Below the pieces are notes generated by a model, which was given only the letters and a program-made list of their open reading frames with translations, was not told the origin of the DNA and made no database searches. From assembly GCA_965197465.1 (NCBI GenBank), contig OZ240209.1, positions 5,078,477 to 5,142,476 on the forward strand: a DNA stretch of 64,000 bases, in the 5' to 3' direction. Below, piece after piece: positions 1,929-40,467 of this stretch (its first letter is position 1; each line of letters starts with the position of its first letter). The position numbers and the translations under genes are program-made. This stretch comes from Candidatus Poribacteria bacterium (GTDB taxonomy: Bacteria; Poribacteria; WGA-4E; JAJDTR01).

Positions 1929-2765
1929 CTACGTTGTTAGTTCTCGGCTAACCACGGCTCTCGCCAAGTGTGGGAAGAGTTGGTCGTGGATTTCCATCGG
2001 CTGGCGGAGGTGAACCATGCGGTTCTCGTCAGCGGTATCTATCATGGTGGGATAGTATACGCCGGCTCCCGTTTTGAGCTTGTAACCCCCCGGCGAATGC
2101 GTGCTGAGGTATCGACGCGCAATGTCGAAATCTTCAGGTGACTTGGCGCGGCGGGTGCAATTCATGGTGAACATGCGCCTTCGATTTCCGCCGCCGAAAG
2201 AGGCGTGATAGAGATCGTGATTAAAAACCACAACATCGCCGGGATTGGTTTCCATAGCGACGCTGCCGGGGAACTCCCCGGGCGGGATACCGAAAAGCTC
2301 GAGCGAATTATTGACATCTATCTTCTGTGTGCGAACGTAGTGATCAGGTTTATGGCTCGCGGGAATGAAACGCAGCGCGCCGGTGTCGCGGGTTAGCGGA
2401 TCCAAATAGAACGCAATCTTGGCGGCGAAGAGTTTTCCCCAGCTTCCGTCAGGGTGCCAGCCGGTGTTGCCGCTGTAATAGTTGCCGTCACCGCCGCAAT
2501 AATTGAAATCCTCTCCCAGAATACTTCCGATGAGGTCAAGTATCACGGGGTGATCGAGTAGCGCGCACATGTCGGGTCTATGTTCAATGGGTTTCAGAAA
2601 CATGGTGCGGTGTGAACCGTCGTGATCTCGTCCGCCGCCGCAGTTCTGAATTGACCATTCAAATCTTTCGATGATTTCGTCTGTCTCTTCGGGTGGAAAC
2701 AGTTGTGGAATCATCAGGTAGCCAAAGGTGTCGAAGAAGCTCAGTTGTTCTTGAGTCAGTGGCAT
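1929..2765 (-). CDS. Phytanoyl-CoA dioxygenase (PhyH) family Fe(II)/2OG oxygenase
   Basis: 278 aa with PhyH-like sequence features (WHPD.., HxD..H arrangement). Confidence 0.6.
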   Translation of the reverse strand: MPLTQEQLSFFDTFGYLMIPQLFPPEETDEIIERFEWSIQNCGGGRDHDGSHRTMFLKPIEHRPDMCALLDHPVILDLIGSILGEDFNYCGGDGNYYSGNTGWHPDGSWGKLFAAKIAFYLDPLTRDTGALRFIPASHKPDHYVRTQKIDVNNSLELFGIPPGEFPGSVAMETNPGDVVVFNHDLYHASFGGGNRRRMFTMNCTRRAKSPEDFDIARRYLSTHSPGGYKLKTGAGVYYPTMIDTADENRMVHLRQPMEIHDQLFPHLARAVVSRELTT

Positions 2766-3058
2766 TTCTGTAACCTCCTAGAAGAAGGGGGTGGAAGGAT
2801 GGAAGCGGGGAAGGTTGGAAGGCTCCTTTTCGCGCCGCGTCCTATCCTCCGGAGCAGAACAAATGGGGGACAAATTGTTGGGTTTCACCGGGTTCAACGC
2901 AACCTACGGGATTGAAGGGGCGTAGAAACCGAGTTTTCAAGAAACACTCGGTTTCGTCGCGATTCGGAGATCGCTCCTACAGCCGGGCTGGAGGGATCTC
3001 TATCGATCAAGGGAGCGGCTAGTGACCGCGATAGAAATCTTGCTCCCTATCCGCTCGC

Positions 3059-3880
3059 TTAATCGCTCTGATTTGACCAGACGAGCGGGGTCTGAGATTC
3101 GTTGTTGAGGACATCTCCGATATCAAGGCTTTCTACCTGCTCATCGGACAGAACGTTTTGGATACCGTTGAATGTCGCACCATCCGGCATATAGATGCAG
3201 GTCATCGCCCGACGCGGATACGGTGTCATATTGGGGCCTGCGGCATGGGCAGTGAGTCCGTTGTGAAAACCGGCAGATCCAGCCTTCATCTCGGCAGCCA
3301 CAGGCTCAATCTCTCTGAAACCGGGATATTCGTCGAAGAGAGCTCCTATAGTGGGCCCAAAGTGCCCTTTCTTTTCATAATTTGTTAACTTGTGTGAGCC
3401 GGGCAGGTAGTACATGCAACCATTCTGTATCGTGGCGTCGTCCAAGGCAATCCAAATGGAGATTGCGTTAGGTGAGTGAAAAGACCAATTGGGATCGTCC
3501 ACGTGCCAGGACGTGGGGTTGTCCCAGGCACGTTTCTGCAATGTCTGATCGTGCCATACGCGGATGCCGTCAACGCTTGCGAGTTTGCACAGCATTTTCC
3601 CATGCTCGGGGTTCAGAAAATACTTTTTGACGGTGTCATTGATTTTCCACAGGTTGACGCGCTGGAGGAAGACTCTGTTGTAATAGGAATCCATCCCTTT
3701 ATTGAGCGCTTTGTTGCTTTCTCCTCCGTCGGCAATCCTGTCGTTCCCCATCTGCGTCACGGCTCCATTGACAGCGGAGCACATTTCCTCGAGTTCGTCG
3801 GAGGTAAGAAAGTCCTCGATTATGAGCCAGCCTTCGCGCTGGTAGGCTTCAATTTGTTGAAAGGTTAATGCGGTTTTCAT
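3059..3880 (-). CDS. Phytanoyl-CoA dioxygenase family protein (paralog A)
   Basis: 273 aa. About 75% identical to the neighbouring paralog at 4258-5103. ..WHVDDP.. / ..HNGLTAHAAGPN.. motifs. Confidence 0.6.
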   Translation of the reverse strand: MKTALTFQQIEAYQREGWLIIEDFLTSDELEEMCSAVNGAVTQMGNDRIADGGESNKALNKGMDSYYNRVFLQRVNLWKINDTVKKYFLNPEHGKMLCKLASVDGIRVWHDQTLQKRAWDNPTSWHVDDPNWSFHSPNAISIWIALDDATIQNGCMYYLPGSHKLTNYEKKGHFGPTIGALFDEYPGFREIEPVAAEMKAGSAGFHNGLTAHAAGPNMTPYPRRAMTCIYMPDGATFNGIQNVLSDEQVESLDIGDVLNNESQTPLVWSNQSD

Positions 3881-4257
3881 CTCAAAACTTGCCTGAATCG
3901 CGGATTAAACAGATTAAAGGATTTCACGGATTAAGATTGGCTAAGCGGTAAATCCCCTAGGGGTTGCGAAACATGACTCTTGTGCTAACTCCGTAAGATT
4001 TGAATAGTTAGAAAATATTCCATGTTAAGGCAGCCTAACATGGAAAATCTCTATCGCATTGGGAGTTCTATCGCACGGGATTAGCTATCAAGACTTTCTA
4101 TCGCCTTCACTATCCGTTCTGTTGATCGCTCGCTATTCAGTCGCTTGATCCTCGCCTACCATTATCGGGCGAGGGAACCTCGCCCCTACGGGCAATCGAC
4201 GTGAGTTGGGGCAACAGGATTGCTATCGCGGTCATTATCCATTCCCTTGATCCCTCG

Positions 4258-5103
4258 CTATTCACTCGGTTGATCGCTACCTGCAGCAGGCAGATTGGAC
4301 CAGACGAGCGGGGTCTGAGATTCGTCGTTGAGCACATCTCCGATATTGAGGCTGTCTACCTGTTCATTGGACAGGACGTTTTGGATGCCGTTGTAGGTCG
4401 CTCCATCCGGCATATAGATGCAGGTCATCGCTCGGCGCGGATTCGGCGTCATGTTGGGACCTGCCGCGTGAGCAGTGAGTCCGTTGTGAAACCCGGCTGA
4501 GCCAGCCTTCATCTCGGCGGCCACAGGCTCAATCTCTCTGAATTCGGGGTATTCGTCGAAGATTGCTCCCATATTAGGTCCAAAGTGCCCTTTCTTTTCA
4601 TAGTCTGTTACCTTGTGTGAACCGGGCAGATAATACAGGCAACCATTCTGAAGCGTTGCGTCGTCCAAGGCAATCCAAATGGAGATGGCGTTAGGAGAGT
4701 GAAATGACCAACTTGGATCGTCCACGTGCCAAGACGTGGGGTTGTCCCAGGCAAGCTTCTGCAACGTCTGATCGTGCCACATGCGGATGCCGTCAATGTC
4801 AGCGAGTTTGCATAGCATTTCGCCCAATTCGGGGTTCAGGAAGTACCTTTTGAGGGTGTCATTGATTTTCCATAGGTTGACTCGCTGCAGAAAGACTCTT
4901 CGGTTAAACGGCTTCACATCTTTGAAGAGCGCTTTGTTGATTGTTCCTCCGTCCGCAATTCTGGTGTCTCCCATCTGCGTCACGGTTTCACTGACAGCGG
5001 AGCGCATTTCCTGCAGCTCATCGGAGGTGAGAAAGTCTTCGATGATGAGCCAACCCTCGCGCTGATAAAGTTCAACTTGTTGGGATGTCAATGCTGTTTT
5101 CAT
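4258..5103 (-). CDS. Phytanoyl-CoA dioxygenase family protein (paralog B, tandem duplicate)
   Basis: The ORF runs to 5250, but the alignment with paralog A and an MKTALTSQQ start place the start codon at 5101-5103. Two dispersed-repeat copies lie in the spacer between the two paralogs. Confidence 0.6.
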   Translation of the reverse strand: MKTALTSQQVELYQREGWLIIEDFLTSDELQEMRSAVSETVTQMGDTRIADGGTINKALFKDVKPFNRRVFLQRVNLWKINDTLKRYFLNPELGEMLCKLADIDGIRMWHDQTLQKLAWDNPTSWHVDDPSWSFHSPNAISIWIALDDATLQNGCLYYLPGSHKVTDYEKKGHFGPNMGAIFDEYPEFREIEPVAAEMKAGSAGFHNGLTAHAAGPNMTPNPRRAMTCIYMPDGATYNGIQNVLSNEQVDSLNIGDVLNDESQTPLVWSNLPAAGSDQPSE

Positions 5104-5326
5104 CTTAATGCCTCCAAGTGATAGATTGTTGGAAATGAACGTAGCATCTCCCCTGCTCAAGCAAGTAGGTAGTTGATATATGCTTGCGCCAGCGAGTGCG
5201 AGATCTTGTCTGGAGCGTGTTAACCTAATCGCGGCTCCGATTCCCGACAAGTCGCGATTCGAAAATCGCTCCTACCGTTTAACGTAAGGTGGTTTACGGC
5301 ACATGGAGAACCACTTTGAAACGATG

Positions 5327-6178
5327 TCACCTAGGGTTTTTTATGTGCGCCCATGTCGTGACGAGTTTGCCTGTCGGAAAAACGGCTAGCGCAGCAGCCA
5401 ATCCCTCCTCGACAATTTGTCCGAGATCTTCATCGGACAGCGCATGATTAAAGACGGCAACATCGTCAATCATGCCGTCCAGATAGTGTTCGTCACGCGG
5501 CTTTGCCGTTCTTCCAATGTTTAGAGGCGCCCCTTTAGCATTACCCGCCGCGAGGGTGGTGGTCCAGTTTTTCTCGCCAATCAGTTTTCCATCGTAATAC
5601 ATCTTCATTTTGTTTCCGCTGCGCGCCATGGCGTAATGATGCCACTCCATATACTTATAGCGACCAGGGACTTGGGGGCCCATATCCGTACCACCGCCTC
5701 CTCCTCCGCCGCAACCTATACAGAAGTGAAAGTATAATTGTTCGCCGGCGCAGCAATGCCTTAACCTAAACCACCATCCATCCCAGAATACCGCATCCAA
5801 GTGTACAGTTGTATAGCCCATGATGTTGTAACGTCTGTCTTTTCCTCGTTGATCCATAAGGACGTAGGCAGCGATGGTAAAGTCGTCGTCTCCAAATGCC
5901 CAAGCATCGTTGGCGTTCGGCACCTCGACATAACTATCCTCGCCGTCCAGCACTATGCCGCCGCCAAACTTCCCCTTTCCCCAAGTGGCACCTCCCTTGA
6001 GTGTTCCGATGTTCCCATTACGGCTGAGATCTGCGCTTCGCTTTCCCTCACCTTCATCAAAGCTCAACGCGACTATGGCGCTCCTGATATTAATCTCGGC
6101 ATCGCTGGTTTCCATCATCAGACTGAGAGAGACTATTGCCACAGTTACCATGAGTGACGCATAAAGTAGACGTTTCAT
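5327..6178 (-). CDS. Secreted LamG / concanavalin-A-like lectin domain protein
   Basis: Signal peptide. ..LDGEDSYVEVP..DDFTIAAYV.. is a LamG_3-like signature, with a Gly7 linker. The C-terminus ..GKLVTTWAHIKNPR resembles the shared tail motif. Confidence 0.55.
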   Translation of the reverse strand: MKRLLYASLMVTVAIVSLSLMMETSDAEINIRSAIVALSFDEGEGKRSADLSRNGNIGTLKGGATWGKGKFGGGIVLDGEDSYVEVPNANDAWAFGDDDFTIAAYVLMDQRGKDRRYNIMGYTTVHLDAVFWDGWWFRLRHCCAGEQLYFHFCIGCGGGGGGGTDMGPQVPGRYKYMEWHHYAMARSGNKMKMYYDGKLIGEKNWTTTLAAGNAKGAPLNIGRTAKPRDEHYLDGMIDDVAVFNHALSDEDLGQIVEEGLAAALAVFPTGKLVTTWAHIKNPR

Positions 6179-10287: not shown

Positions 10288-10319
10288 TGGCTGTTATGTG
10301 CCACTAGCTATTACGCTCC

Positions 10320-10510
10320 ACGATTTCACCTCATCATTTGTAGTTGTCCCTACCCATAGGTTACCCTGACACGGCACGACCCCACGAATTGTATCAAACT
10401 CACCCTCCGATGTGTCGCAGCGTTTCGTACTTTCCTATCTAACAAGTGAACACCAATGTTCATTTTTTATGCAAGAGGGGCATTGGCAGTTCTCGCAACA
10501 GTGCCTCTGT
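10320..10510 (-). promoter_or_regulatory. Conserved paralog-array leader element (orphan copy, no propeller gene downstream)
   Basis: About 85% identical to 11957-12235 and 46003-46262. Contains the gtgaacaccaatgttcatttttt palindrome. Confidence 0.6.
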
Positions 10511-10534
10511 CTTAACAATTTCTAGGGTGCGTCT

Positions 10535-10717
10535 ATGAAACGCCAGCTCGTTAAGGAAACGGTGATTAACAAGCAGACGCTGCTATTCGTATACACTGGT
10601 GGTGGAGCGTTCGGGCATGAGTTGGGGCTCGTTTTTGACGTTGGAGGAGGCAGAGGCGTTTGCCCGGCGCCACACCCACGGAGGAAAGGTGAACGATGTA
10701 TCAAGACAGGGGGCTAG
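10535..10717 (+). pseudogene. Degraded copy of the small divergent ORF (paralog of 12240-12458)
   Basis: Same N-terminus MKRQLV(K/R)ETVINK.TLLF. A roughly 20-bp deletion relative to 12240-12458 shifts the frame. Confidence 0.4.
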
Positions 10718-10845
10718 CCTCCCATGAATGTTTGAATCCGTACGAGGCGCACCTGTGGTGGCTGCCGATGTTCTTCTGGCGCAGCGCCCCGGATGTGACG
10801 ATGGCGGCGGTTGTTTTATCCTTTCTTCCTACCGCCTCCCCCATT

Positions 10846-11956
10846 TTATTGTTTTTGCTTTATGGCGCCCCAGGTGACGGCGGCTTTGTTGTAGGGTTGA
10901 AGGCGGGGAAAGGCGGCGCGGTAGATGCCCTCGTCCGTGGCGGCGTACAGGTCCGATCGATGGGATACGAGCGAGTCTACTTTGGCGCCGTTTAGTCCTA
11001 CGTAGGACCAGGTTTCGGATCGCTCATTAAACACGTACACGCCCCGGCGTCGAATTGCGGCAAAGATACGGTTGTCATGGGAAACCAGCGCATCTATATA
11101 GGCCCACTGCGAAGCCGATCGGTGATCGCGCGGGTGCGGCGGAAGGCCTTGGACAAGCGGGTGACTCAACGCGTTTTCGTATCGTGCGAAATAGGCGGTT
11201 TCCCCTTCGTCCCCTTCGTGATACTCTGCGGCAACATAGATTCGATTGTTGTGCACCACCCAGGCGGTAGGGAACCGGAGGCTTCCGTGCTGGGGGAGTA
11301 CGAATTCCCATGTGCGGCCGTTGTCTGGCGAACGTACTATCGTATATTTCAGGGCTGCCCACAGATAGCCGTCGAACTCTAGCAACTGGGCGTCATTATA
11401 AGAGAGGTAGTCATCAAGTGCGCCCTCGGCCGGCACGATCCACTCCAGCGTTACGTCCAGCCAGGTCTCGCCCCGGTCGTAAGATATATATATTGGGCCG
11501 CGCATCACGGCGATGACCGCGCCGGAACGTGTGACGAGTATTTGTTTAATCCAGCCGTAATAGGTACCTCCGTCGGCATATTCGAATAGGCGGAGCCCGT
11601 TGTTTATGGGCTTCCATGTCTCCCCCCGGTCGTCGGATCGCAACATGCCGACATCCCTATACGATCCGACATAGATGGTATTTCCATGGACGGTGAATGC
11701 GCTAACACCACGTTCGAATTCGGTCGTACGCCAAGTCCAAGTGGCACCGTTGTCGTCCGAGACTTCAAGTCCGCGCTCTGTCGCGCCGTAGAGGCGGCGC
11801 CCATCGGATTGGAGTCTGTACACACGATTATTGACCTCGGCGCCGCCGACCGGAATCCAGATAGTTTGGATGTCGGCATTCGATTGGTCCGCTAGCATAG
11901 TCATCATTACTAAGAAAATGAAAGCGGTTCGGATAAAACGTCGAGTCCATACCATT
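10846..11956 (-). CDS. Secreted BNR/Asp-box repeat beta-propeller protein
   Basis: Asp-boxes (RSDDRGETW, VSDDNGATW, SYDRGETW, RSPDNGRTW). Signal peptide starts at MVWTRRF, with the start codon at 11954-11956 behind a GGAGG RBS; the upstream in-frame extension to 12138 is probably not translated. C-terminus ..QPYNKAAVTWGAIKQKQ. Confidence 0.7.
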
Positions 11957-12235
11957 GGATTTCCTCCCTTCGAATCGATGGCTATCGGATTGATTGTGTT
12001 AGTAGAACTTGAGCAAGTTTTGTGCCACGCCCATAAGTTGCCGTGACTCGGCAGTATCCCACGAATTATATCAAACTTGCCCAGATGTGTCGCGGCGGTT
12101 TGTACTTTCCTATCTAACAAGTGAACGCCAATGTTCATTTTTTGTGCAAGAGGGGCGTTGGCAGCTATCGCAACAGTGCTTGTGTCTTACAATTTCGTGA
12201 GAGTGCAGGGCGGTGAACGCTCGGTTCAATTTCTA
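11957..12235 (-). promoter_or_regulatory. Conserved leader/promoter element upstream of the BNR gene
   Basis: Shared with 10320-10510, 14255-14381, 38860-39010 and 46003-46262. Palindrome tgaacGccaatgttca followed by T6. Confidence 0.6.
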
Positions 12236-12239
12236 GGAT

Positions 12240-12458
12240 GTGTCTATGAAACGCCAACTCGTTAGGGAAACGGTGATTAACAAGCGGACGCTGCTATTCT
12301 ACCGTCTGGAGAGCGGTTCGTATACGCTGGTGGTGGAGCGTTCGGGCATGAGTTGGGGCTCGTTTGCGACGTTGGAGGAGGCCGAAGCGTTTGCCCGGCG
12401 CCACATGCAGGGAGGGGAGGTGAACGATGTATCAAGACAGGGGGCTAGCCTCCGATGA
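12240..12458 (+). CDS. Small hypothetical protein, divergent from the BNR array
   Basis: 72 aa. Intact counterpart of the degraded copy at 10535-10717. Confidence 0.35.
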   Translation: MSMKRQLVRETVINKRTLLFYRLESGSYTLVVERSGMSWGSFATLEEAEAFARRHMQGGEVNDVSRQGASLR

Positions 12459-12974
12459 ATGTTTGAATCCGTGCAAGGCGCATCTGGGGTGGATACCGAA
12501 TGTTCCGGATCGGTTGGACGAAACCCCGGAGTAGGGTGACATGCTGTGTTTGTGGCCGCTGTTTTTGATGCGACCGGGCGACGGTACGATAGAGCACCGC
12601 GCCGTACACGCAGTGTGCTGATACGGTTCTGAGTGGAAGAGGCAGCCGACGTGCATCCGGCTCATTCGGTCAAGACGATCGACCGCATTAGGGATTCAAT
12701 GAAGGTACCTCTCCTTCGGTCAATCTCCGCATGCGTAGCGTAACAACGCGCCGCCGGAATGGCATTTCAGTCGTACCGCAATGCCGGCTTCGGCGGCATT
12801 GGCAGTTTCGTTCGTACAGTACGTCCAAATCTTCAGTGTCCGCCTTTCCAAATACCATTTCAAGATGGGGATTGTCGGACCGTTATCGGAGTCGGGTGCA
12901 TTGGTGACGGTGAGGCCGATAGGCGGTTCCGAAAAAACGACCTACGAGTAGGAGCAGTAGGATTAGTGGCTTCA

Positions 12975-13397
12975 TTAAGGTGTCCATGTGCGCAGTGTTG
13001 TGCGTCCGCAGCTCCACATTAAATCCCATTCGAGGACCTCGCCGCTGACAGGCGTGAAACGAATGCGGGATATGTCCTCGTTTCCAGCGCTGTACGACAT
13101 CGGACGACGAGGCCCATCGTGTTTAGCTCGTAAATAGCCGATGGGAGCCGAGAAGTAGACAGTGAACGACGCGTCTCCTGTTGCGTCGAATTCAGGGATA
13201 ATGGCACGCTTGGGAACATCATCGGGGGCGCTCCAATCGGCTGTAATGACCTGCATCGGTGGAGATACGCTGACCAGTAGAGCGGGATTGGCATCAAGGA
13301 TTACGTGCGGCACGACGTGGTTATGCTCTTGCGGGTCGTGTTGGTGGTCGCCGCAAGCGAAGAGAACGACCATCAGCAGCAGGCTTAAGCGTATCAT
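12975..13397 (-). CDS. His-rich lipoprotein (paralog family)
   Basis: Lipobox LFAC followed by GDHQHDPQEHNHVVPH. C-terminus ..LMWSCGRTTLRTWTP. Start assigned at MIRLSLLL (start codon at 13395-13397). Confidence 0.55.
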   Translation of the reverse strand: MIRLSLLLMVVLFACGDHQHDPQEHNHVVPHVILDANPALLVSVSPPMQVITADWSAPDDVPKRAIIPEFDATGDASFTVYFSAPIGYLRAKHDGPRRPMSYSAGNEDISRIRFTPVSGEVLEWDLMWSCGRTTLRTWTP

Positions 13398-13417
13398 GTT
13401 TTTCTCCTTTCGCCGGT

Positions 13418-13864
13418 TCACGGCGTCCAAACGGGCACTCGCGCGCTGCCGCAGTTCCAGATTAGTTCGAATTCCAGGTAGCGCCCCGGATAAGTCCGCG
13501 TGGACCACTGCACGTAATCTTGGCCCCCGGCCCCGGTGCCGTACCAGTTTACCGGAGGCGGATGCGGTCCGAGGTAACTAATGTGCACGTATAGCGGCGG
13601 CTTTGAGAAGGTGACGGTGATGACGTGGTCTTCTTTGTCGGCCGGCTCGAGGATAACGGCCTGCTTGACGACCGATGGGTGTGCGTCCCACTCGTCGGTT
13701 ACGGGCTTGAGCGGCGGGTCGATGTCTATGATAATAGCCGCGTCGGCGTCCACAACAAGCTGTGATACGACGTGTTCATGACCGTCGTCATGCTCGTGGC
13801 TGCAGGCGGCGAGTAGTAGCAGGAGTGGGGTTAGGATAAATGTTAAGCCGAGTTTGTTATTCAT
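13418..13864 (-). CDS. His-rich lipoprotein (paralog)
   Basis: LLAAC lipobox, then SHEHDDGHEHVV. C-terminus ..LIWNCGSARVPVWTP. Shares ..ITVTFSKPP.. with the 43978 and 44391 lipoproteins. Confidence 0.55.
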   Translation of the reverse strand: MNNKLGLTFILTPLLLLLAACSHEHDDGHEHVVSQLVVDADAAIIIDIDPPLKPVTDEWDAHPSVVKQAVILEPADKEDHVITVTFSKPPLYVHISYLGPHPPPVNWYGTGAGGQDYVQWSTRTYPGRYLEFELIWNCGSARVPVWTP

Positions 13865-14106
13865 GAATGGGCTCCTTCATTTTTTTTTAACGGCGAGCCA
13901 CCAGGGGGCGGCCAGCGGTTGCTCTTATCCGGCCATATATTCACAATCTGGACGTTCGGGCGGGGGGCGTCCGCCACGACGTGCGGCGGTGGGGATTCCT
14001 CGCCGCAGCCGGTTATCAGGACGACAGCACCGATGAAAAAGAATGCGTATAGGGCGACGATCACCGCCGCCTTAACGATTCGTACGAACAAATTGGAGCC
14101 GTTCAT
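13861..14106 (-). CDS. Small membrane lipoprotein
   Basis: 81 aa. TM segment then a ..ITGCGEE.. lipobox. A truncated relative lies at about 38700-38760. Confidence 0.4.
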   Translation of the reverse strand: MNGSNLFVRIVKAAVIVALYAFFFIGAVVLITGCGEESPPPHVVADAPRPNVQIVNIWPDKSNRWPPPGGSPLKKNEGAHS

Positions 14107-14254
14107 AGGGTTTTCACCTTTTCGGCAGTGTTAGTTCTCATAGCGGCAGCACTTCGTGAAAGTCGATCCGAGTTGAGTGCACAAAATTTGCCGTCTCTTG
14201 TAGAGTTGATAGTTCTTGAATTGATTGCGTTATTCGAGTGTGTGCAAGTTATGC

Positions 14255-14381
14255 GCCACTATCTATCACGCACCAAGGCTGTCCTAGTCCATAAGCTGCC
14301 CTGTATTAGCACTACCCTACGAATTGCATCAAACTCACCTCCTGCTGTGTCTTATTCGTATCTAACAAGCGAACGCTCGGT
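14255..14381 (-). promoter_or_regulatory. Conserved leader element (shorter copy)
   Basis: Aligns to the 5' part of the other leaders (..ccacgaattgcatcaaactcacc..tatctaacaagcgaacgc..). Confidence 0.5.
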
Positions 14382-14882
14382 TCAATGAAGGAGCCGCTCC
14401 GACGGATCTGCGCATGCGTACCGTAACAACGCGCCGCCGGAATGCCATTGCAGTCGTACTGCAAAGCCACCGCCGCCGGCTGCCGCTGTTTCCTCCGTAC
14501 AGTAGGTGGAAATCTTCGGTGTCCGCCCTTCCAAACGCCATCCCGATATGGGTATTGTAGAACGTCCGTCGGGGTCGGGTACGTCGGTGACGGTGAGGTC
14601 GATAGGCAGTTCAGAAAAAAGGACCCAGACCTGCTGCAGCCCCTCGTATGTGAGTTTTCCGATGCCGATTGGTTGTTTATCGCTGACGGATTGGCCCGGG
14701 TCTTCCCAGATGATTTGCGCATCGGGGTATGTGACTGGGGCGTGGGTATGGTCGGCCAGGCTGTGTTCGTGTGCTATGAGCGTATGCTCGTGGGTGTGGT
14801 CGTGTTCGTGTTGGTGGTCTGTTAGCGGGTGGTCGTGGCTGCAGGCGAGGAGGGTGATGAGCAGGAACATGAAGATTCTCAT
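14382..14882 (-). CDS. His-rich lipoprotein
   Basis: Lipobox LLAC followed by SHDHPLTDHQHEHDHTHEHTLIAHEHSLADHTH, a strong metal-binding signature. Confidence 0.55.
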   Translation of the reverse strand: MRIFMFLLITLLACSHDHPLTDHQHEHDHTHEHTLIAHEHSLADHTHAPVTYPDAQIIWEDPGQSVSDKQPIGIGKLTYEGLQQVWVLFSELPIDLTVTDVPDPDGRSTIPISGWRLEGRTPKISTYCTEETAAAGGGGFAVRLQWHSGGALLRYACADPSERLLH

Positions 14883-14896
14883 GAAACTTTGCCTCT

Positions 14897-15915
14897 TTAT
14901 TGTTTTTGCTTTATGGCGCCCCAGGTGACGACGGATTTGATGTGGGGGTGAACGACAGGTATTCTGGCTCGGTAGAGGCCTTTGTCTTCGACGGCGGCGT
15001 ACAGGTAATCCTGATGGGGTATGAGATCGACGACGAGAACATCGTGCAGCCCCGCCTTAACAAACGTTTCGGTGTGGTGGTCAAACTGGTAAACACCGGC
15101 GAAGAGGCGGCCGCGATGCACGGCCAAGCTTGTGAAATGCGGGGAGTCAGGTGAGGGTGGAAGCCCTTCGCTGAAATACTCCCAGTCGTGTTCGTCTTCG
15201 TTCCACCGGCCGAACACGTGGCGGATGACGTACAATCGGCCGTTAAATTCTTGCCAGTCGTCTATGCGGGTGAACTTAAATTTTTTAGTCCATCGCCACG
15301 TTTTGCCTCTGTATGGGGAACGGGTGATACCGCCGGTGGTGGCGGCCCACCAGTAACCGTCGAACTCGGCCATGGACCAGATATCGTGGCTAATGCGAAT
15401 CGTATTGTTAAAGTTCCCGGGAACGCGCCAGAGTTTGTAGGTACTCTTCCACCACTCGCCGCGGTTGGTGGATATATAGGCGCCCGCGTAATACTTGCAG
15501 GTTATGGCGGTGCCGGGGAGCGCGTAACGAGTATTTGGTTTACTTCGGCATACCTGCGCTCGTCGACAAACGGGCCAATGTCAAACGTGTCAATGCCGAC
15601 ACTTTTGTGTTCCCATGTGACGCCGCCGCTGTCGGAGCGGTATAGGCCGTGCTTAAGCGTGCCTGCATAGACGGCATTCTTACCGACGCCTATTGCAGTA
15701 ACGTGGCGGTCCGGCAGGGTTAATCGGAAGGTATAACCGGGGCCCCGGGACATGTAAAATCCGCCCGAATACCCGAGATAGAGGCGGTGCTCGTCGGATT
15801 CAAGGATGGTTGCATAATTCAGATCGTCGAAATCATAGACGAGCTCCCAGTCAACTTGAAGCGCGGCGTGGGCGACGGCAGCGAGTAGCATCGCGAGCAG
15901 AACTAGGTATTTCAT
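14897..15915 (-). pseudogene. BNR propeller paralog disrupted by frameshift/internal deletion
   Basis: N-terminal part (15502-15915, signal peptide MKYLVLLAMLLAAVAHA) and C-terminal part (14897-15373, ..EFDGYWWAA..VVTWGAIKQKQ) lie in different frames. About 70 bp is missing relative to the paralogs. Confidence 0.55.
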
Positions 15916-16943
15916 GGTCGTTTGATTGCTCCCCAGGTGACGGCGGCTTTGTTGTAGGAACTCAAGCGGGGGAAGGACGCGCGGTAGATCCCTTCCTCGG
16001 TGACGGCGTACAGATCGGATTGGTGGGATAAGAGCGAGGTCACGGTCACGCCGTCGAGGCCTGCGGGGAACCACTCTTCGGAGCGCTCGTCGAACACGTA
16101 AACGCCCCGGTTCACGAGTCCGGCGATCACACGACCGCGGTTAAGAACCAAGGCGTTTACCTCGCAACGGAGGGTTACGCCGCTGCTGTCCGGCAACCCG
16201 GCTACGGGATACCGCCACTGGTTGATGCGGTCGAACCGCGTTAAAAACGAGTTGCTCATCGGACCGTACTCCTTGGCGGTGATAAACACGGTATCATCGA
16301 GCACGGCCCAACCGGTAGGCCAAGCGAGCCAACGGAAGACCAGGTTACTATACTCGAAGATGCGAAAGCGGGCATCCTCTTCGGCTTTCAGTACGGCGGC
16401 GGTGGGGCTGCCGTGTTTGTCCAATATCGCGACGCCGCGTCCCACATGCCAGTCGGTGGCGTCGATGCGCCAGTTTCCACCAGCATCGCGCCACAAATTG
16501 CGGCCGTAGGGGGACTCATCGGTGCAGCACGCCATGGCACTGAATACAACGCCGTGAGGGGTGTAGAATTTGTACCGGTAGAGGCCGTAGTCAGCACCAG
16601 CCGGGAAGTCTCTTTGGGTATCGAAAAAGTGCAGCCCGCCGCCGACGTGCTCCCATGTTCTGCCACGGCTATCTGATCGATAGACGCCGTCATAGGCATT
16701 CGAGCCGACATAGACCTCGTCCGGGGTGGCTTCCAACACGCGCACCGGTTGAGTAAATCCGGTTAAACGCCAGGAGTGGCCGTTATCAAAGGACCGGTAG
16801 AGTCCGCGGGCAGTGCCGGCGTAGATGTTGCCGCCGTCACTTTTAATGATGTGCGCCGAATGTTCCGGGCCGTCGATTGGCGTCCAGGGCGAGGCGTGGA
16901 CGGAAGCGGCGAGCAGGATCACGATTAGGCTCAGGTATTTCAT
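15912..16943 (-). CDS. Secreted BNR/Asp-box beta-propeller protein
   Basis: Signal peptide MKYLSLIVILLAASVHA. Asp-boxes. C-terminus ..SSYNKAAVTWGAIKRP. Its stop TGA overlaps the ATG of the next copy (ATGA). Confidence 0.65.
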   Translation of the reverse strand: MKYLSLIVILLAASVHASPWTPIDGPEHSAHIIKSDGGNIYAGTARGLYRSFDNGHSWRLTGFTQPVRVLEATPDEVYVGSNAYDGVYRSDSRGRTWEHVGGGLHFFDTQRDFPAGADYGLYRYKFYTPHGVVFSAMACCTDESPYGRNLWRDAGGNWRIDATDWHVGRGVAILDKHGSPTAAVLKAEEDARFRIFEYSNLVFRWLAWPTGWAVLDDTVFITAKEYGPMSNSFLTRFDRINQWRYPVAGLPDSSGVTLRCEVNALVLNRGRVIAGLVNRGVYVFDERSEEWFPAGLDGVTVTSLLSHQSDLYAVTEEGIYRASFPRLSSYNKAAVTWGAIKRP

Positions 16944-16951
16944 GGTTTCCT

Positions 16952-17449
16952 CTAGCGGATGCCGAGGGTTAGCTTGGACTCGCCGATGGTGTAGAAATCG
17001 TTTCCGCTGATGAAGCTTGATATTTCGACGTCTATGGAGGTCACGATGCCCCGCCATTCGGGGTCGTGATTGTTTTTGTCCCAATCATAGGGCCACGCAT
17101 TGTAAAGGGAACAGTAAAAGTCATCCAATACTTTGGGAAAGATGCCGTAGTAAACGCTTGTGTCGGGGTATACGGTCACGTAGTACGGGGCGTCGTCTAT
17201 GACAAAATTACCGCCATCCCCGCTGAATCCTTTGTACGCAGCCCCCACGCGGACGGCTACCTGATAAGGCAGCGGCTCTCTCGCAACCAGCTTGTAGTGG
17301 TAGTATCTGTCAGAATCGGGAAAGTCCTCCTCCAGGGCTTCCTCGCCGCAGCCGGCTAACAGGCTTAACGCGGCGACGATGAATAGCACGGCGAGCGCAA
17401 TGAGCAGAGACAATTTTATGAGGCGTTCGTAGGCTTCGAAGCTGTGCAT
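16952..17449 (-). CDS. Lipoprotein, unknown function
   Basis: 165 aa. TM/signal then an LLAGCGEE lipobox. Tyr/Asp-rich. Confidence 0.5.
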   Translation of the reverse strand: MHSFEAYERLIKLSLLIALAVLFIVAALSLLAGCGEEALEEDFPDSDRYYHYKLVAREPLPYQVAVRVGAAYKGFSGDGGNFVIDDAPYYVTVYPDTSVYYGIFPKVLDDFYCSLYNAWPYDWDKNNHDPEWRGIVTSIDVEISSFISGNDFYTIGESKLTLGIR

Positions 17450-17750
17450 TTAGGTTGTCCTTGAGAAGTGACGGCATCCGGATAGACAATGACGGGCGAT
17501 AGAGGGCAAGTAGCGTGCCACTAGCGCAAACGCCGTCGCGGGCGTGGTTTTGCGGGGCGGCGGTTACAACAAAATGGACAGTGGTGTTCACTTTGTGTGC
17601 ACTGGCGAGGGTGGAATCGGGTGGGCTATTCTCGCCGGGAAAGGATGAATTAAGGTGAGAGAACGCATCAACCATTGCGATTGGCGGGCATCATAGCAAA
17701 GGTAAAATCGAGGTGTAAACAGAGAAACAATTAAGAAATACCAAGAGAAG

Positions 17751-18116
17751 TTGCAATTCTCATTCCCATCAGCTAAAATAGAGCACCACTTTTTTTGGGA
17801 AGGAGAATTACCAGTGCCGCAACGAACAAGCAAAATCTCGGATACCACACTCGTTGAGATTATCGCAAAACGGCTCCTTGGGGTAACACAGTCGGAAATT
17901 GCGAAAGAGTATGGGGTATCCAAACAAACCATTCAGTATTACGAGACAAAAGAGACCTCGAAGGATTTGAAGAAGATTGTACTTCAAAGGATAGCCGAAA
18001 CTGTGGGTGACGCACTCGGAGAACAGGCGCTTGAGCAACTGGCGATCCGGAAACATGATAAACCCGATAATGAGCCGGATGTACAGAGCGGCAACTTCGG
18101 CTTGAGCGCGAAATGA
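17751..18116 (+). CDS. HTH domain protein (putative DNA-binding)
   Basis: ..LLGVTQSEIAKEYGVSKQTIQYY.. is a classic helix-turn-helix. The start may be internal. Confidence 0.4.
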   Translation: MQFSFPSAKIEHHFFWEGELPVPQRTSKISDTTLVEIIAKRLLGVTQSEIAKEYGVSKQTIQYYETKETSKDLKKIVLQRIAETVGDALGEQALEQLAIRKHDKPDNEPDVQSGNFGLSAK

Positions 18117-25699: not shown

Positions 25700-26953
25700 T
25701 TACTGATAAAACCATTCCAATGGATAGATGCGCAGTACACGTTCACTGGTCAAGCGTGCCTCCTCGCCTTGCTGTGCCATCCAACCGCGGGAGTAGATCA
25801 CGTAGACCTTGTCGGCGGCGAAGCAGATGTTGGGATAGTAGATGTTCGCGTAATCATCGGGCAGAGTGCCGACATAGTGCTGGGATCGCACCGGTCGAAT
25901 GGGGTATTCCGCGGGGATGCGCTCCACATCCTCCAGCCCCGCGCTAAGCTCCAAAGTCTTAAAGTTCTCCCAGGTTGCACCGCTGTCACGGGATATTGCG
26001 GCTGATAATCGCCCTCTGAGATATCCGCGGCGTATCTCTGCGTTAGAGACCTGATTCCACACACATATTAGATCGCCCGTCCCAGGGATGCGACGCAGCC
26101 GCGGCGGTGAATAGGAGCACCCCAATTCGGTGGGCTTGACGGCACTCCACGTCTGGGCATCGTCTCTGCTGTAGCTGTAGAGTATCCTGCCAACGGTCGA
26201 TCGAGCAAAGAATAACACCCCGCCGTCTTTGGTTTCAGCTACCGAGGGCTCATCACAGGGCGTCACGCCGCAATTGCCGTTGACCACACCCTCGAAATCG
26301 AACCAACCCATCAGGCAGCCGTATTCCTTAAAGGGGCTCCACGTGCGCCCCTCATCGTCGGAGTAGTACACGAAGGCAATCTCCATCTGTGGGCAGTGCC
26401 CCTCTCCTTCGACCGAAGCCGGCAACCCTTTCCAGGTGCCCCATCCCTCGCACTCCGGGACACGGGACGCGCCGCCTATCGGCAACCCAAAGCCATCGTC
26501 AGGATGGTAGCCTCCCAACACGGTTCTTCGCGGGCACAACAGTCTACCGCCGGACAGTTGGATTATGGTGTCAGACCAGCCGCGTTTAGCGGTATCCAAG
26601 GGAATATGGCGAGGTCTATCCCACGTTTCTCCATTGTCTTGCGATATCCATATCCGGTCGTCGCTCGTCAGCGCTATTGCGCCTGAATTGAGGCAGGTCA
26701 ACCCGTTTCCGTCTACCCCGTCACCGAATGAGCGTGGCTCGCTCCAGGTTCTGCCTCCGTCCGAGGAGACGCTCCCGTTTTGCGCCAGCAGGCTTCCATC
26801 GGGCAGCTCCACAAGGCTGCTGACGCCGGTACCGATAATTTCGACCACTCCTTCGGGGGGCGGCTTGCGCCAGCCTGGCTTGGTTGCTGCTTGTTCAGCG
26901 GTGTTGCCAACGGAATTGTATACTAGAGCGCCCAAAAAAGTTGATATTTGCAT
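25700..26953 (-). CDS. BNR/Asp-box repeat sialidase-like (GH33-like) secreted protein
   Basis: Asp-boxes SSDGGRTWSE, SQDNGETWDR, SDDEGRTWSP, SRDDAQTWSA, SRDSGATWEN. Signal peptide from MQISTFLGAL. Lacks the TWGAIK tail. Confidence 0.6.
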   Translation of the reverse strand: MQISTFLGALVYNSVGNTAEQAATKPGWRKPPPEGVVEIIGTGVSSLVELPDGSLLAQNGSVSSDGGRTWSEPRSFGDGVDGNGLTCLNSGAIALTSDDRIWISQDNGETWDRPRHIPLDTAKRGWSDTIIQLSGGRLLCPRRTVLGGYHPDDGFGLPIGGASRVPECEGWGTWKGLPASVEGEGHCPQMEIAFVYYSDDEGRTWSPFKEYGCLMGWFDFEGVVNGNCGVTPCDEPSVAETKDGGVLFFARSTVGRILYSYSRDDAQTWSAVKPTELGCSYSPPRLRRIPGTGDLICVWNQVSNAEIRRGYLRGRLSAAISRDSGATWENFKTLELSAGLEDVERIPAEYPIRPVRSQHYVGTLPDDYANIYYPNICFAADKVYVIYSRGWMAQQGEEARLTSERVLRIYPLEWFYQ

Positions 26954-27459
26954 GGTATGATTTTTCCTGGTCAAGTATCTATAGGAGAACTTAGCGTCGG
27001 TGACTCTCCTGTCGCCTTGTTTTCCATCCGGGGATAGCGGTCATTAAAAATTATACCATTTCTATAAAACGAAAGTGCATTGATAATGTGATCGAGTAAA
27101 GAAACTTGCGTAGAGTGGAGTAAGAACCCTTGTCTCCGCGCAAAGTCGGCGGGGCAAGATGCCCCGCCTACGGAAAAATTGAACGATATCACCAAGACAT
27201 CATATGCACTGTCATTCAAGCGAAATGGTATTAGTTTTCCGTGAGACGGCGTTTTTGGCAGCGGACACGCCCAACATTGGTGATTCTACTCAATCTTTGG
27301 GACAATGTCAAGAAGTCGGTACAGGAGAACCGCATCTAAAGGCCTGTTGTCGGTGATTAGGGGTGAGTTAAAACCAAAGATTTGCGAAGGAGTCCATCTT
27401 CGATGGGTTGGGCAGCACCATCGGCAAAAACAACCCGCACAGTTTGAGGTGTTCTATTT

Positions 27460-28727: not shown

Positions 28728-30710
28728 TTAGTGAATTGAGAAGGTATAGGGCGGGATGTGGAGGATGATGCCAAGCGCGCTCCAAAAACTACCCACCACA
28801 AATTCGCCGAGGACTAGCCCCAAGAAAAACGGAATGGCTTTCCGATGAGCGCGTAACCCGCCGCATTTGATGATTACCCATTTTGCAACGGTACTAATCA
28901 CCAAGCAGAACCAGATATAGTCTGTACCAAAGTTGATGGAGAAGGCGTAGCCTGCCGGGTGAAATGGCCACCAGAGGAATCGCTGGCGCATCGCCATCAG
29001 CAGCATGGTAAAGCTAAACCCGAGCCCCATAGCTAGAACCGCACCGTAGTTTGTTCCTGACGGGTGAGACAACCCTTTGTGCATCGCCGTGAAGCCCTCC
29101 CTCCCGCTGAAGGTAAACGGCATCCCGCCTTCGTACGAATAATGCAACAGAATCCAAAAGGAGGTGGGAATTGCCACAACTGCCGCCAACATCATGCCGA
29201 TCACGAGATGCCGTAAGCCTATATTCGCCTGCTCGCCGATTTTAAGATTTTCCAAGTATTCCGGCATCGGATGACTGGGATAATTGCGGTTGAAAAACCG
29301 GAAAAGGGCAATAACACTCAGGTTCGACGCTCCCAATCGACGAGGGCCGAAAACATTTACGACGATTCCGCTTGCATTGACAGCCCACAAATTCTGGTGA
29401 GCGGGGGCACTCTCCGCACGCGCTCTCGACAATGCGAGGAATATGGCGTAGTCGATGCCGAAAAACACCACAATGACCCAAGGTGACATCCCGGCATAAT
29501 AGGAGAACCCAAAGATAAACAACATGCTCCCAGCGAGTCCTACGAATGCCCACCGCTGATGCCGTACTTCCTCCCAATTCGATGCGGTGCGGGGTCGGAG
29601 TAATCCCCGGAAAACCGTCACGAAATGTCGACGCGTGAGCCACAACGCCAGAACGGCTATGCCCAACCACGCGCCTTGGGCTTGATAATCGAAAAAACGG
29701 CCGCTGCCCCGCGGGTAACTGTGGCCGCCTGCAATGGCTACCGGTACCTGAAGTATCTTCCTAAAGAGATAGAAAAACCAGAGAGAAAAGGATAGATCCA
29801 GCGGCAGGAAAAAACTCATGCCGATGACGAAGGGATAAAACGAAATGGGAGTCCAGCCGATAGCGTTCCAAGGCGGCTCTGTGAAAAGTGGGCCAATACT
29901 GCGCAGTTTTACGTGTAGATAGGGAACAACTGGGAATAGGAAGTGGAGTCCGTTAAGGGTATCAATCCCCGCAGCAATGGCAAACCCCGCCCACAGCAAC
30001 TTTGACTTGAACACCCTAGACTGCCTGTGTGTCATCACGAGCGGCACCTGAATGACAGGATAGGCGAGTTTTTCACGCTCGACCCACTGCTTTCGGACAA
30101 TTACGCAGAGACAGAACATACCTGTGAGGAGCGCCAGGATGAACAGCGACCACCAGAAAACGGGAACAATCCACGTGAAGACGTGCAGGTCGGTGTAGAG
30201 GGTGGACTGCCCCTCGAAGAATCCCTGTACAGCGCGTTTGTCGCTGATGGTAAGCCAGGTGGGAACGTGAGGGTGGATGAGTTGCGCCCATTCATTTTCC
30301 GGGGTTGCAAACCAATGGGCATAAGGAATAGTTGGGACAAGCAAGGGGAGAAAATGATGTCCGGCAATTGAGGTTGCAACACACAGCATGGCGTAGATTG
30401 TCAATAACTCCTCGCGCCGCATCGCCCTTAACGGGGCAATCTTCTGCAGTAACCGATTGATTGACAGGAGGACGAATAGACTAAAAACGGTGTTGAAGAA
30501 TAGCGTTGTAAGTGTCGGATGCCCCGCATTCCATATATCCTCCGACATGATAACCCAGTAACAATTTAGGGGTACCAGCACCAATCCGAGCGCAATAGTG
30601 CGCCAAGGCGTGAGGGTAGAGGAACTTGGTTTGTGCGAGGACGCTTGGAATTGGCTTGGTTCAAGCGGCATGGAGTAGGCTCCATTTGTTGCAATAGCGC
30701 AGACATGCAA
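28728..30710 (-). CDS. Large polytopic membrane protein, unknown function (paralog of 61885-63816)
   Basis: More than 12 predicted TM segments. Shares ..ATPENEW.QL.., ..EREKLAYPV.., ..EPPWNAIG..FYPFVIG..LPLDL.FS.W.F.. blocks with the 61885 gene. Alternative start at 30671 (MPLEP). Confidence 0.55.
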   Translation of the reverse strand: MHVCAIATNGAYSMPLEPSQFQASSHKPSSSTLTPWRTIALGLVLVPLNCYWVIMSEDIWNAGHPTLTTLFFNTVFSLFVLLSINRLLQKIAPLRAMRREELLTIYAMLCVATSIAGHHFLPLLVPTIPYAHWFATPENEWAQLIHPHVPTWLTISDKRAVQGFFEGQSTLYTDLHVFTWIVPVFWWSLFILALLTGMFCLCVIVRKQWVEREKLAYPVIQVPLVMTHRQSRVFKSKLLWAGFAIAAGIDTLNGLHFLFPVVPYLHVKLRSIGPLFTEPPWNAIGWTPISFYPFVIGMSFFLPLDLSFSLWFFYLFRKILQVPVAIAGGHSYPRGSGRFFDYQAQGAWLGIAVLALWLTRRHFVTVFRGLLRPRTASNWEEVRHQRWAFVGLAGSMLFIFGFSYYAGMSPWVIVVFFGIDYAIFLALSRARAESAPAHQNLWAVNASGIVVNVFGPRRLGASNLSVIALFRFFNRNYPSHPMPEYLENLKIGEQANIGLRHLVIGMMLAAVVAIPTSFWILLHYSYEGGMPFTFSGREGFTAMHKGLSHPSGTNYGAVLAMGLGFSFTMLLMAMRQRFLWWPFHPAGYAFSINFGTDYIWFCLVISTVAKWVIIKCGGLRAHRKAIPFFLGLVLGEFVVGSFWSALGIILHIPPYTFSIH

Positions 30711-35385: not shown

Positions 35386-35763
35386 TTTGGTTTCCTCCAA
35401 TTTATGTTTTAGTTGAGCCTTACAGTGTCGAATTATCCCAATTCACCACCCGATTAACATCAATTTGGGTGGCTTCAAACGCAGACACCGTGAGGAGTTG
35501 AGCGACTCTTTCCGTGGTTCCTGACCTTCTGATGCACATGGCTTACCGTCCACATTCTCTAAAGTAGCTTATGCGAACGAATGGATATCAGGAATTATAG
35601 GGGTTGATGGGTACGAAGTCAAGCACAAATATTAAGATTCTGCTTGACTAATGGCTGGCGCTAGTCAAGTGTTGCGGAAAAACGGAAGATATTTTGATTG
35701 TCTAGCTTCTTGGTTGACCATTGAAAATGTCGCCCGTGGTTTATGATATCATGCAGATGAGGT

Positions 35764-40313: not shown

Positions 40314-40467
40314 TTGTTTTCACCTTTCTTGATGCTTTGGATTATAGGTCTGAGGGAGCTGACTCGGATGGTGGTGCCAACGATTGTGCCGATGAGCATG
40401 ATGCCGGCGCCGAGCAGGGCGCAGGCGAGTAGGAAGATGAGCGGGGAGCGGACTTTTTCGCGTTTTT

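Follow-up and report, generated by a model that had tools for sequence, protein, structure and literature searches.

Putative sigma-54-type promoter cassettes and arrays of exported beta-propellers and lipoproteins in Candidatus Poribacteria

A 64,000-nucleotide stretch of a Candidatus Poribacteria contig (OZ240209.1, positions 5,078,477 to 5,142,476; hereafter the window) contains a minus-strand gene array, here named array I, in which Asp-box (BNR) beta-propellers and small lipoproteins are encoded alongside repeated copies of a non-coding DNA element. With moderate confidence, we interpret array I as a lineage-specific Poribacteria system of exported envelope or surface proteins, driven by sigma-54-type cassettes and anciently duplicated. 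According to this model, the array would consist of three transcription units and one dead promoter, each unit opening with a cassette of ~250 nt whose 3' end would be a sigma-54 (RpoN) -24/-12 promoter; upstream inverted repeats, chiefly TGAACATTGGCGTTCA, would be the binding sites of a shared enhancer-binding ATPase, and one signal would switch arrays on together. The predicted products are of two kinds, namely ~7-bladed Asp-box beta-propellers with a Sec signal peptide and a conserved disordered tail (KxxTTWGxIK), and small lipoproteins in which a flexible linker, often rich in His, connects a lipid anchor to a single Ig-like domain. Both families would have arisen by ancient tandem duplication, each copy being kept by selection, and the cassette would supply homology for recombination, leading to swaps of mature domains and leaving remnants. 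At the cell envelope, the products may act as non-catalytic binders of ligands, either nutrients or components of the host matrix. A literature search returned nothing on these propeller/lipoprotein arrays; the new elements are the cassette and a widespread, unannotated C-terminal tail.

Poribacteria are dominant, uncultivated sponge symbionts. The window derives from Candidatus Poribacteria, as do the named propeller homologues, and the genome loci recovered with the propeller profile (30/30) belonged to Poribacteria metagenome-assembled genomes; the family was found only in Poribacteria genomes. The exact protein encoded by one of the propeller genes, BNR3, is also present on two ENA contigs of 5.96 Mb (L001) and 6.52 Mb (L002), which served for strain comparison.

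Putative promoter cassettes of array I

The five cassette copies of the window align as a modular element of ~250 nt. Using nhmmer, ~45 non-identical copies were detected in loci L001-L032 (E 1e-20 to 1e-80), all of them on the gene strand and distributed over at least 12 genomes, and the end of most falls only a few nt from the start codon of a propeller or lipoprotein gene. Conservation peaks in a block that is a canonical sigma-54 -24/-12 promoter, TGGCAC-N5-TTGC: in an alignment of 30 sequences and 314 columns, the TGG of GTGGCACAnAACTTGCT accounts for three of the six invariant columns, with CAC and TTGC conserved to at least 90%. This pattern occurs four times in the window against 0.14 expected, always on the minus strand (12013-12027, 17506-17520, 38855-38869 and 46060-46074). 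The sequence set scanned for promoters, rpoN and activators comprised 733 kb, including overlapping and sibling Poribacteria loci; it yielded 41 exact matches, every one of them on the gene strand (41/41), and the majority are followed after 40-90 nt by an ATG that has a ribosome-binding site of the GGAG type. Approximately 100-150 nt upstream of the promoter, the inverted repeat TGAACATTGGYGTTCA (the palindrome given above) has three exact matches against 0.00 expected. Further inverted repeats (GGCA-N13-TGCC and GAAACGC-N4-GCGTTTC) are present, and the cassettes tolerate a 47-nt insertion between inverted repeat and promoter.

Across 13 cassette-plus-gene units of different genomes, mean pairwise DNA identity was 73-86% for the cassette and 78-85% for the signal-peptide codons, compared with 52-78% (mostly 59-73%) for the rest of the gene and 44% for the flank upstream of the cassette. 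No other part of the locus is conserved as strongly as the promoter and signal-peptide cassette, which exceeds the genes behind it.

Within array I, the complete enhancer-promoter cassette is copy B (11957-12200, minus strand), with the palindrome at 12122-12137, the sigma-54 motif TGGCACAAAACTTGC at 12013-12027, and a GGGAGG ribosome-binding site ahead of the ATG of BNR3. Copy C (14189-14377, minus strand) is truncated at its 5' end and carries TGGCGCATAACTTGC at 14244-14258. The promoter region of the lipoprotein gene lipoA (17450-17779, minus strand) is a second, related cassette of ~260 nt, conserved in five genomes, with copies in loci L001, L004, L013 and L024, and with an exact -24/-12 motif, TGGCACGCTACTTGC, at 17506-17520, 57 nt 5' of the lipoA ATG. 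Finally, copy A (10293-10524, minus strand) is an orphan with no gene behind it; its palindrome (10447-10462) and its -24 element TGGCAC (10293-10303) are kept, the sequence diverges exactly at the expected -12 TTGC, and its promoter is probably dead.

Judged by these motifs, the cassette would be a sigma-54-type enhancer-promoter and not a transcribed leader, the untranslated region amounting to ~45 nt; we infer from the sequence both its sigma-54 dependence in vivo and the use of the palindrome as an activator site. The geometry agrees with established knowledge of sigma-54 systems: promoters with upstream activator sites of the NtrC/NifA type have the same TGGCAC-N5-TTGC at a fixed distance from the start codon, and the inverted repeat 100-150 nt upstream would be the counterpart of their activator site. 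In contrast to NtrC/NifA systems, the whole enhancer-promoter is here copied as a unit, in dozens per genome, and is more conserved than the genes it drives. The mechanism of sigma-54 transcription is outlined in PMC4987338 and PMC9017345, and a literature search found no paper linking Poribacteria with sigma-54.

Several observations weigh against the proposed model. Many of the 41 promoter matches come from overlapping or sibling loci and hence are not independent. Cassette C has TGGCGC, one mismatch to the -24 consensus (a variant also found in L010 and L032), and retains only the right half of the palindrome. Neither rpoN (sought by its RpoN box) nor an enhancer-binding protein with a GAFTGA motif was found by regular expressions in the 733 kb; because the scan was limited to these 733 kb and the genome has ~6 Mb, the argument for sigma-54 dependence is drawn from the promoter sequence. 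A sigma-70-like pair (GCGACA-17-TATAAT) lies inside cassette B, with a spacing that is not conserved across copies, and no intrinsic terminator that would mark operon ends was predicted on the minus strand between 10.0 and 17.8 kb. The non-catalytic binding role, suggested by structural modelling, has as its basis fold neighbours at template-modelling (TM) scores of 0.5-0.6 only. Sigma-70 promoters and intrinsic terminators were also considered for 10.0-17.8 kb and rejected, their counts being no higher than in shuffles.

On the sigma-54 reading, the ~250-nt cassette would constitute a sequence-defined regulon marker, searchable genome-wide so as to enumerate the co-regulated exported proteins, and checkable against metatranscriptomes. 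The locus also exemplifies non-coding control DNA and signal-peptide codons that are better conserved than the proteins behind them and are reused on different mature domains. If that reading fails, the arrays would represent an ordinary, though large, lineage-specific paralogue family. The core 25-mer of the element had no match in JGI metagenome contigs or viral contigs; nothing thus points to an origin in phages or mobile elements, and the JGI metagenome set does not contain the lineage.

Other features accompany the cassettes. An open reading frame (ORF) of 72 aa on the plus strand (12240-12458) is divergent from the BNR3 cassette, and a second copy (10526-10727, plus strand), intact in L001, has lost ~20 nt and is broken in both the window and L002. 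In other loci this ORF sits divergently at the upstream edge of some cassettes, is sporadic and mostly fragmentary, and has no family match; as it is often degraded as well, it was rejected as a local regulator and is not part of the core system. An Xre-type helix-turn-helix protein (Pfam HTH_3, E 1e-6; 17751-18116, plus strand), directly upstream of the lipoA-type cassette on the opposite strand, is a possible local regulator. Further, a 41-nt intergenic motif, TTTCTATCGCnnTCACTATCCGTTCnnTTGATC, occurs 10 times in the window (1590, 4089, 4214, 8203, 20164, 23730, 25536, 28605, 51359 and 57175), and a related sequence, CTCTATCGCCCGTCATTGTCTATCCGG, follows the lipoA sigma-54 promoter (~17470-17500); with its two CTATC half-sites, the motif may be a second regulatory site.

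Gene content of the arrays and the C-terminal tail

All genes of array I lie on the minus strand. The first, lipoA (16952-17449), encodes a 165-aa lipoprotein (lipobox LLAGC) in which a signal-peptide cassette, MHSFE..LLxGC, precedes a lipoA-family mature domain; a homologue at L010:18373-19044 is 26% identical (E 1e-13). It is followed by BNR1 (15912-16943), a 343-aa exported Asp-box beta-propeller with the C-terminal end ...YNKAAVTWGAIKRP, and by BNR2 (14897-15915), a frameshifted propeller present as two ORF pieces (15502-15915 and 14897-15373). Next come His1 (14382-14882), a 166-aa lipoprotein with the lipobox LLAC, a His-rich linker of ~40 residues and an Ig-like beta-sandwich; the small lipoprotein (13861-14106; 81 aa, lipobox LITGC), consisting of the signal-peptide cassette and 44 unrelated residues; and two His-linker Ig-like lipoproteins, His2 (13418-13864; 148 aa, lipobox LAAC) and His3 (12975-13397; 140 aa, lipobox LFAC). 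A pseudogene of a fourth His1-type lipoprotein (12720-12975) has its start, MKPLILLLLLV, abutting the His3 stop. Behind cassette B lies BNR3 (10846-11955), a 369-aa exported propeller of ~7 blades; four of its Asp-boxes are strict, and residues 355-369 form a conserved, disordered tail. Stop and start codons overlap as ATGA between BNR1 and BNR2 (15912-15915) and between the small lipoprotein and His2 (13861-13864).

A preliminary description of this region, made from the DNA letters and their ORFs, had listed these minus-strand genes, and all of them were recovered in the ORF listing and in the sequence; its end for BNR3, 11956, breaks the frame and is off by one, the true position being 11955. 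The overlap of one propeller stop with the next propeller start, the repeated leader (10293-10524, 11957-12200, 14189-14377 and two copies in array II), its orphan copy without a gene behind it (cassette A) and the His-rich character of the lipoproteins (in His1, His makes up 13 of the first 35 residues behind the lipobox Cys) were likewise present as described, and all-vs-all BLASTP bore out the paralogy of the array genes. The label BNR is justified by the Asp-boxes and by a Pfam BNR score of 31 bits for BNR3 (cut-off 27 bits), although profile support is only weak to moderate. Features that had been missed include the pseudogene at 12720-12975, the plus-strand 72-aa ORF and its broken copy, a second array, and a 220-nt repeat (12723-12942 vs 14406-14625, 80% identity).

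Array II (38814-46260, minus strand) is a near-mirror second array of the same families. It opens with cassette E (46004-46260; sigma-54 motif at 46060-46074) and the lead propeller (44908-46005), which precede four lipoproteins (44391-44774, 43978-44373, 43429-43935 and 42620-43189), two more propellers (41562-42611 and 40468-41565), a leucine-rich repeat (LRR) protein (39561-40313) and cassette D (38814-39023; sigma-54 motif at 38855-38869), all on the minus strand.

The propeller paralogues, including the three of array II (40.4-46.0 kb), form one family with 30-53% identity (all-vs-all BLASTP) and carry type-I signal peptides. Strict SxDxGxTW boxes number four in BNR3 and 0-2 in the other propellers, which have degenerate ones in addition. 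By the same comparison, His1, His2, His3 and two lipoproteins of array II constitute one family. Inspection against the pattern [LVI][ASTVI][GAS]C assigned a lipobox to each of the five array-I lipoproteins, and its Cys is at least 90% conserved in the lipoprotein alignment; a His-rich linker (CSHEH...HEH) with at least four His is found in 20/35 non-identical family members. In the AlphaFold2 model of His1 (predicted local distance difference test, pLDDT, 82.9), a lipid-anchor helix is followed by a His-rich linker of low confidence and then by an Ig-like sandwich with generic Ig-like matches. No significant match to the lipoproteins was obtained in Pfam, NCBIfam or PDB sequences. A word-indexed homologue search with His2 gave two matches; when 1.84 billion representatives were searched exhaustively with the lipoprotein profile, 53 relatives came to light. 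Among them are single repeats within giant Ig-repeat proteins, of the CARDB, Big_5/Big_12 and HYDIN/VesB-like Ig domain types, in line with the Ig-like sandwich of the His1 model. Unlike those giant proteins, the array lipoproteins are single-domain and lipid-anchored, and they have an 'ITVTFSxPP' block and a Cys pair of their own, with a His-rich linker in some members.

The propellers share a C-terminal tail: 103/116 full-length propeller ORFs end in ...GKAATTWGAIK(xx). Its form is ...V.P..GKLATTWGxIK plus 0-7 residues and then the stop (core KxxTTWGxIK), ~15 aa in all, disordered and without a hydrophobic helix, and because synonymous sites vary, selection acts on the peptide. In the window, the tail is encoded at 10858-10875, 14909-14926, 15921-15938, 40477-40494, 41571-41588, 44914-44931 and 5339-5356, and near 34570. 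Its carriers extend beyond the propellers to LamG proteins (5327-6178 and 34564-35400 in the window), PD40/TolB-like proteins and others. A back-translated tail pattern was found on at least 120 metagenome contigs (L033-L152); among the matches listed, 119/121 lie within 10 codons of a stop, the proteins that bear it are secreted but unrelated to one another (LamG, Kelch, PD40, LVIVD, esterase and BNR propeller), and the contigs range from 36 to 61% G+C. A LamG homologue search for the taxonomic range of the tail gave only four close matches. No Pfam or NCBIfam model matches the tail, even at E <=10, and no paper containing the motif string was found in a literature search. The tail is unlike the known sorting signals PEP-CTERM, LPXTG, GlyGly-CTERM and the C-terminal domain of the type IX secretion system, having no model match, no transmembrane helix and no C-terminal domain of 70-100 aa.

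We therefore put forward, tentatively and at less than even likelihood, that the tail is an undescribed C-terminal sorting or anchoring signal of many uncultivated bacteria, of which the sigma-54-co-regulated propeller arrays would be the main Poribacteria cargo, forming a switchable surface-display regulon; the tail would point to an undescribed export or attachment machinery, with DUF6785/DUF6784 as a lead. If the tail is such a signal, it marks a secretion or anchoring route missed by current annotation. Large DUF6785/DUF6784 membrane proteins are encoded twice in the window (28728-30710, minus strand; 61885-63816, plus strand) and near tail genes in 7 of the at least 120 metagenome loci (L040, L057, L066, L070, L083, L096 and L117), seemingly directly adjacent to the tagged gene in about four of the seven; as a lead rather than a result, these proteins could be linked to the handling of tagged proteins. 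As for the Ig-like lipoproteins, they are an unlikely general tail receptor, given that the tail is widespread in metagenomes and the lipoproteins are confined to the 53 relatives mentioned above.

Pairing and function of the two families

The preliminary description had proposed a secreted multi-component system, in which a propeller is joined to a metal-binding lipoprotein partner. Export of the products and co-occurrence of the two families in other loci both hold, whereas their pairing is not obligate. Same-strand propeller arrays of up to ~10 consecutive genes were found in L003, L004, L005, L006, L013, L018 and L019, frequently interspersed with members of the lipoprotein family, and the lipoprotein profile matches same-strand ORFs inside propeller arrays at nine loci (L003, L006, L008, L010, L012, L013, L015, L018 and L024). 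When lipoproteins were taken as the centre, propellers were present in 2/3 informative loci (L153 and L156) and none was found within 10 kb in L157. Among the ~10-copy propeller arrays, L005 and L019 have no lipoprotein and L004 has one weak match. LRR and dockerin proteins are common neighbours as well: Dockerin_1, GHL15 and LRR proteins were observed beside Ig-like lipoprotein clusters of other Poribacteria contigs (L156, 2719-4805; L157, 2138-4213; L158, 1119-3740), a hint that the lipoproteins may go with exported proteins of more than one kind, not with propellers alone.

An obligate secreted complex of a propeller and a metal-binding, His-rich lipoprotein, now being duplicated and pruned, is thus unlikely, even though the families share a strand in many Poribacteria loci, His-rich linkers are carried by 20/35 lipoproteins, and both stop/start overlaps and gene remnants exist. 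The stoichiometry is variable, from ~10 propellers with 0-2 lipoproteins to ~9 lipoprotein ORFs with one propeller, and propellers are missing from the 10 kb around one lipoprotein cluster; about half of the lipoprotein family, including both array-II members, lacks His tracts; and, as detailed below, the duplications are older than the species splits and the BNR2 frameshift is private to one assembly. The propeller and lipoprotein families share one gene neighbourhood and probably one regulon, without forming a fixed pair.

With respect to function, the AlphaFold2 model of BNR3 (pLDDT 82.7) has ~7 four-stranded blades, and its tail (residues 355-369) is disordered (below 50). Foldseek neighbours at TM scores of 0.5-0.6 include WD40 and designer propellers, Ycf48, the BT4663 glycan-sensor domain, DAIP and GH74; the best matches are non-catalytic 7/8-bladed propellers, GH74 and Ycf48, and sialidases are absent from the best 50 matches. 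A profile search of PDB sequences retrieved GH74, 3b7f and sortilin, over just 1-2 Asp-box blades. From sequence and model together, the array propellers are predicted to be single-domain Asp-box (BNR) beta-propellers that belong neither to GH33 nor to GH74. Their closest known counterparts are single-domain Asp-box propellers such as Ycf48/HCF136 and the structural-genomics protein 3b7f ('glycosyl hydrolase, BNR repeat'), which are ~7-bladed exported propellers of 300-390 aa with the same SxDxGxTW hairpins; Ycf48 matches the BNR3 model at TM scores of about 0.57/0.66, and 3b7f matches the propeller profile at E 9e-12. Compared with these two, the array propellers are similar only in the Asp-box blades, have their own conserved blocks (EFDGYLW and VSHQSDLYA), add the disordered KxxTTWGxIK tail and the tandem arrangement, and are found only in Poribacteria.

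GH33 sialidases have Asp-box repeats and a signal peptide in common with the array propellers. They are six-bladed enzymes with an Arg triad, an RIP motif and a Tyr-Glu nucleophile, and neither this blade count nor these catalytic motifs are seen in the array propellers, to which GH33 sialidases align at E 2e-4 to 1e-2 only, via one Asp-box stretch. Pfam BNR_2 stays below its cut-off on the array propellers (21 vs 31.4 bits), and an R[IVL]P/RIP motif is conserved neither in the first blades of any copy nor among the invariant alignment columns; on these grounds, together with the ~7 blades and the fold matches, GH33 membership was rejected. GH74 xyloglucanases form their catalytic cleft from two tandem seven-bladed propellers of ~730 aa in total, whereas the array proteins have 338-369 aa and one propeller, and the GH74 profile match spans only residues 52-118 of the query; GH74 membership was rejected as well.

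It is accordingly rather improbable that the propellers are secreted glycoside hydrolases of a sialidase or GH74-like kind, digesting sponge or seawater glycans with the lipoproteins as glycan-binding accessories, in the manner of a polysaccharide-utilization locus. That view could draw on the NCBI name 'sialidase family protein' given to one propeller homologue, on a partial match to NCBIfam NF045728 (F510_1955 glycosylhydrolase), on the GH74 xyloglucanases as best PDB sequence matches, and on the match of the lipoprotein profile to CARDB and Big-type Ig repeats. The NF045728 scores, however, were 59, 41 and 17 bits against a cut-off of 175 bits, with partial coverage only, and like BNR_2 these sub-threshold matches span 1-2 Asp-box blades; GH74 requires its two propellers, no conserved N-terminal RIP motif exists, no sialidase appears among the best 50 folds, and the arrays are devoid of SusC/D or transporter genes. 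Furthermore, Asp-boxes are described as structural, not catalytic, in PMC2716378. Compared with the array propellers, a separate and larger BNR_2-type propeller encoded at 25700-26974 stands nearer to genuine sialidase-like families.

Age, recombination and soundness of the array

Window copies are 71-93% identical to their closest orthologue elsewhere and at most 53% identical to any paralogue in the window. The closest orthologue is 93% identical for BNR1 (L031), 77% for BNR3, 93% for the lead propeller of array II (44908-46005) and 71% for His1 (L008). Because orthologues are closer than paralogues, the duplications are old and the copies individually maintained; the earlier view of a system that is being duplicated has the tempo wrong, every copy being nearer to its orthologue in another genome than to its paralogues in the window.

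Decay is limited. Over 1019 nt, BNR2 differs from L001 and L002 solely by a CC insertion in a C-run at ~15517-15518, and in both of those contigs the gene is intact (338 aa). The two ORF pieces reported for BNR2 are real in the window, but the frameshift is private to this assembly; it is a lesion that this strain acquired very recently, or else a homopolymer error, and does not testify to long-term decay. Remnants of pruning do exist, although the frameshift, the most conspicuous example, may be a sequencing error. The first 37 aa of the small lipoprotein are 89% identical to a 215-aa protein of L010, with no homology beyond, and the gene is a signal-peptide cassette remnant in front of His2-His3. 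In the fourth lipoprotein pseudogene, an intact signal peptide is followed by an internal deletion and a frameshift, and over its C-terminal 73 aa the product shares 67% identity with His1; its state is the same in all three strains (window, L001 and L002).

Mature domains seem to have been exchanged behind conserved 5' sequences. The MHSFE...LLxGC signal peptide precedes the lipoA-family domain in the window and an Ig-like domain in L001, L002 and L013. Window positions 16919-17347 are unmatched in L001/L002 (4584-5039 there) despite flanks of ~99% identity; here a cassette has been replaced, the limits of the exchange being the signal-peptide codons on one side and the start of BNR1 on the other. 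In different strains, promoter and signal-peptide cassettes are joined to different mature domains.

A comparable arrangement is known from the 'upstream homology box' lipoprotein paralogues of Borrelia (Erp/OspE/F/Elp), in which a near-identical upstream region and signal peptide precede divergent, recombining mature parts; these families are plasmid-borne, sigma-70/RpoS-controlled and belong to a pathogen. The Poribacteria arrays differ in being chromosomal, tandem, of sigma-54 type and from a sponge symbiont, and no evidence of antigenic variation was found. We doubt strongly that array I is a contingency or antigenic-variation locus, in which conserved 5' cassettes recombine silent copies and homopolymer slips switch copies, varying the symbiont surface. 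The different mature domains behind one promoter and signal peptide in ~99%-identical strains, the 2-nt C-run change that disrupts BNR2 in one strain, and the orphan and truncated cassettes would all fit such a locus. Nevertheless, most copies have their own promoter or lie within operons, each copy is kept as an orthologue across species, the C-run has only 2-4 nt, the three strains are otherwise collinear, and no recombinase or invertase family appeared in Pfam scans, which covered only part of the window ORFs.

Regarding the cassette itself, called a leader in the preliminary description, its high non-coding conservation and several inverted repeats could point to a transcribed structured RNA (riboswitch, small RNA or attenuator) that controls the genes behind it. 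This is extremely improbable: the element has no match in Rfam, RNAalifold on the 314-column alignment gave -3.4 kcal/mol with 0 compensatory pairs, and these two results ruled out a structured-RNA leader; moreover, the best-conserved block is a promoter located at the 3' end, and transcripts starting there would leave out most of the element.

Although the region is rich in repeats, there is virtually no likelihood that array I arose during assembly through the collapse or chimeric joining of repeats, because L001 and L002 are collinear with the window through array I at ~99% identity and with the same gene order, and the copies are far too diverged to collapse, direct repeats in the window being at most 91% identical and shorter than 500 nt (direct-repeat search). 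Mis-assembly of array I is excluded by these three independent long contigs.

The surroundings of the arrays in the window are rich in expanded or 'eukaryote-like' families typical of Poribacteria, including three PhyH paralogues (1929-5250), the LamG gene at 5327-6178, the LRR gene at 39561-40313, and a tetratricopeptide repeat (TPR) plus FG-GAP/ASPIC-UnbV region (46567-49922). Expansion of PhyH in Poribacteria has been reported (PMC3909097).

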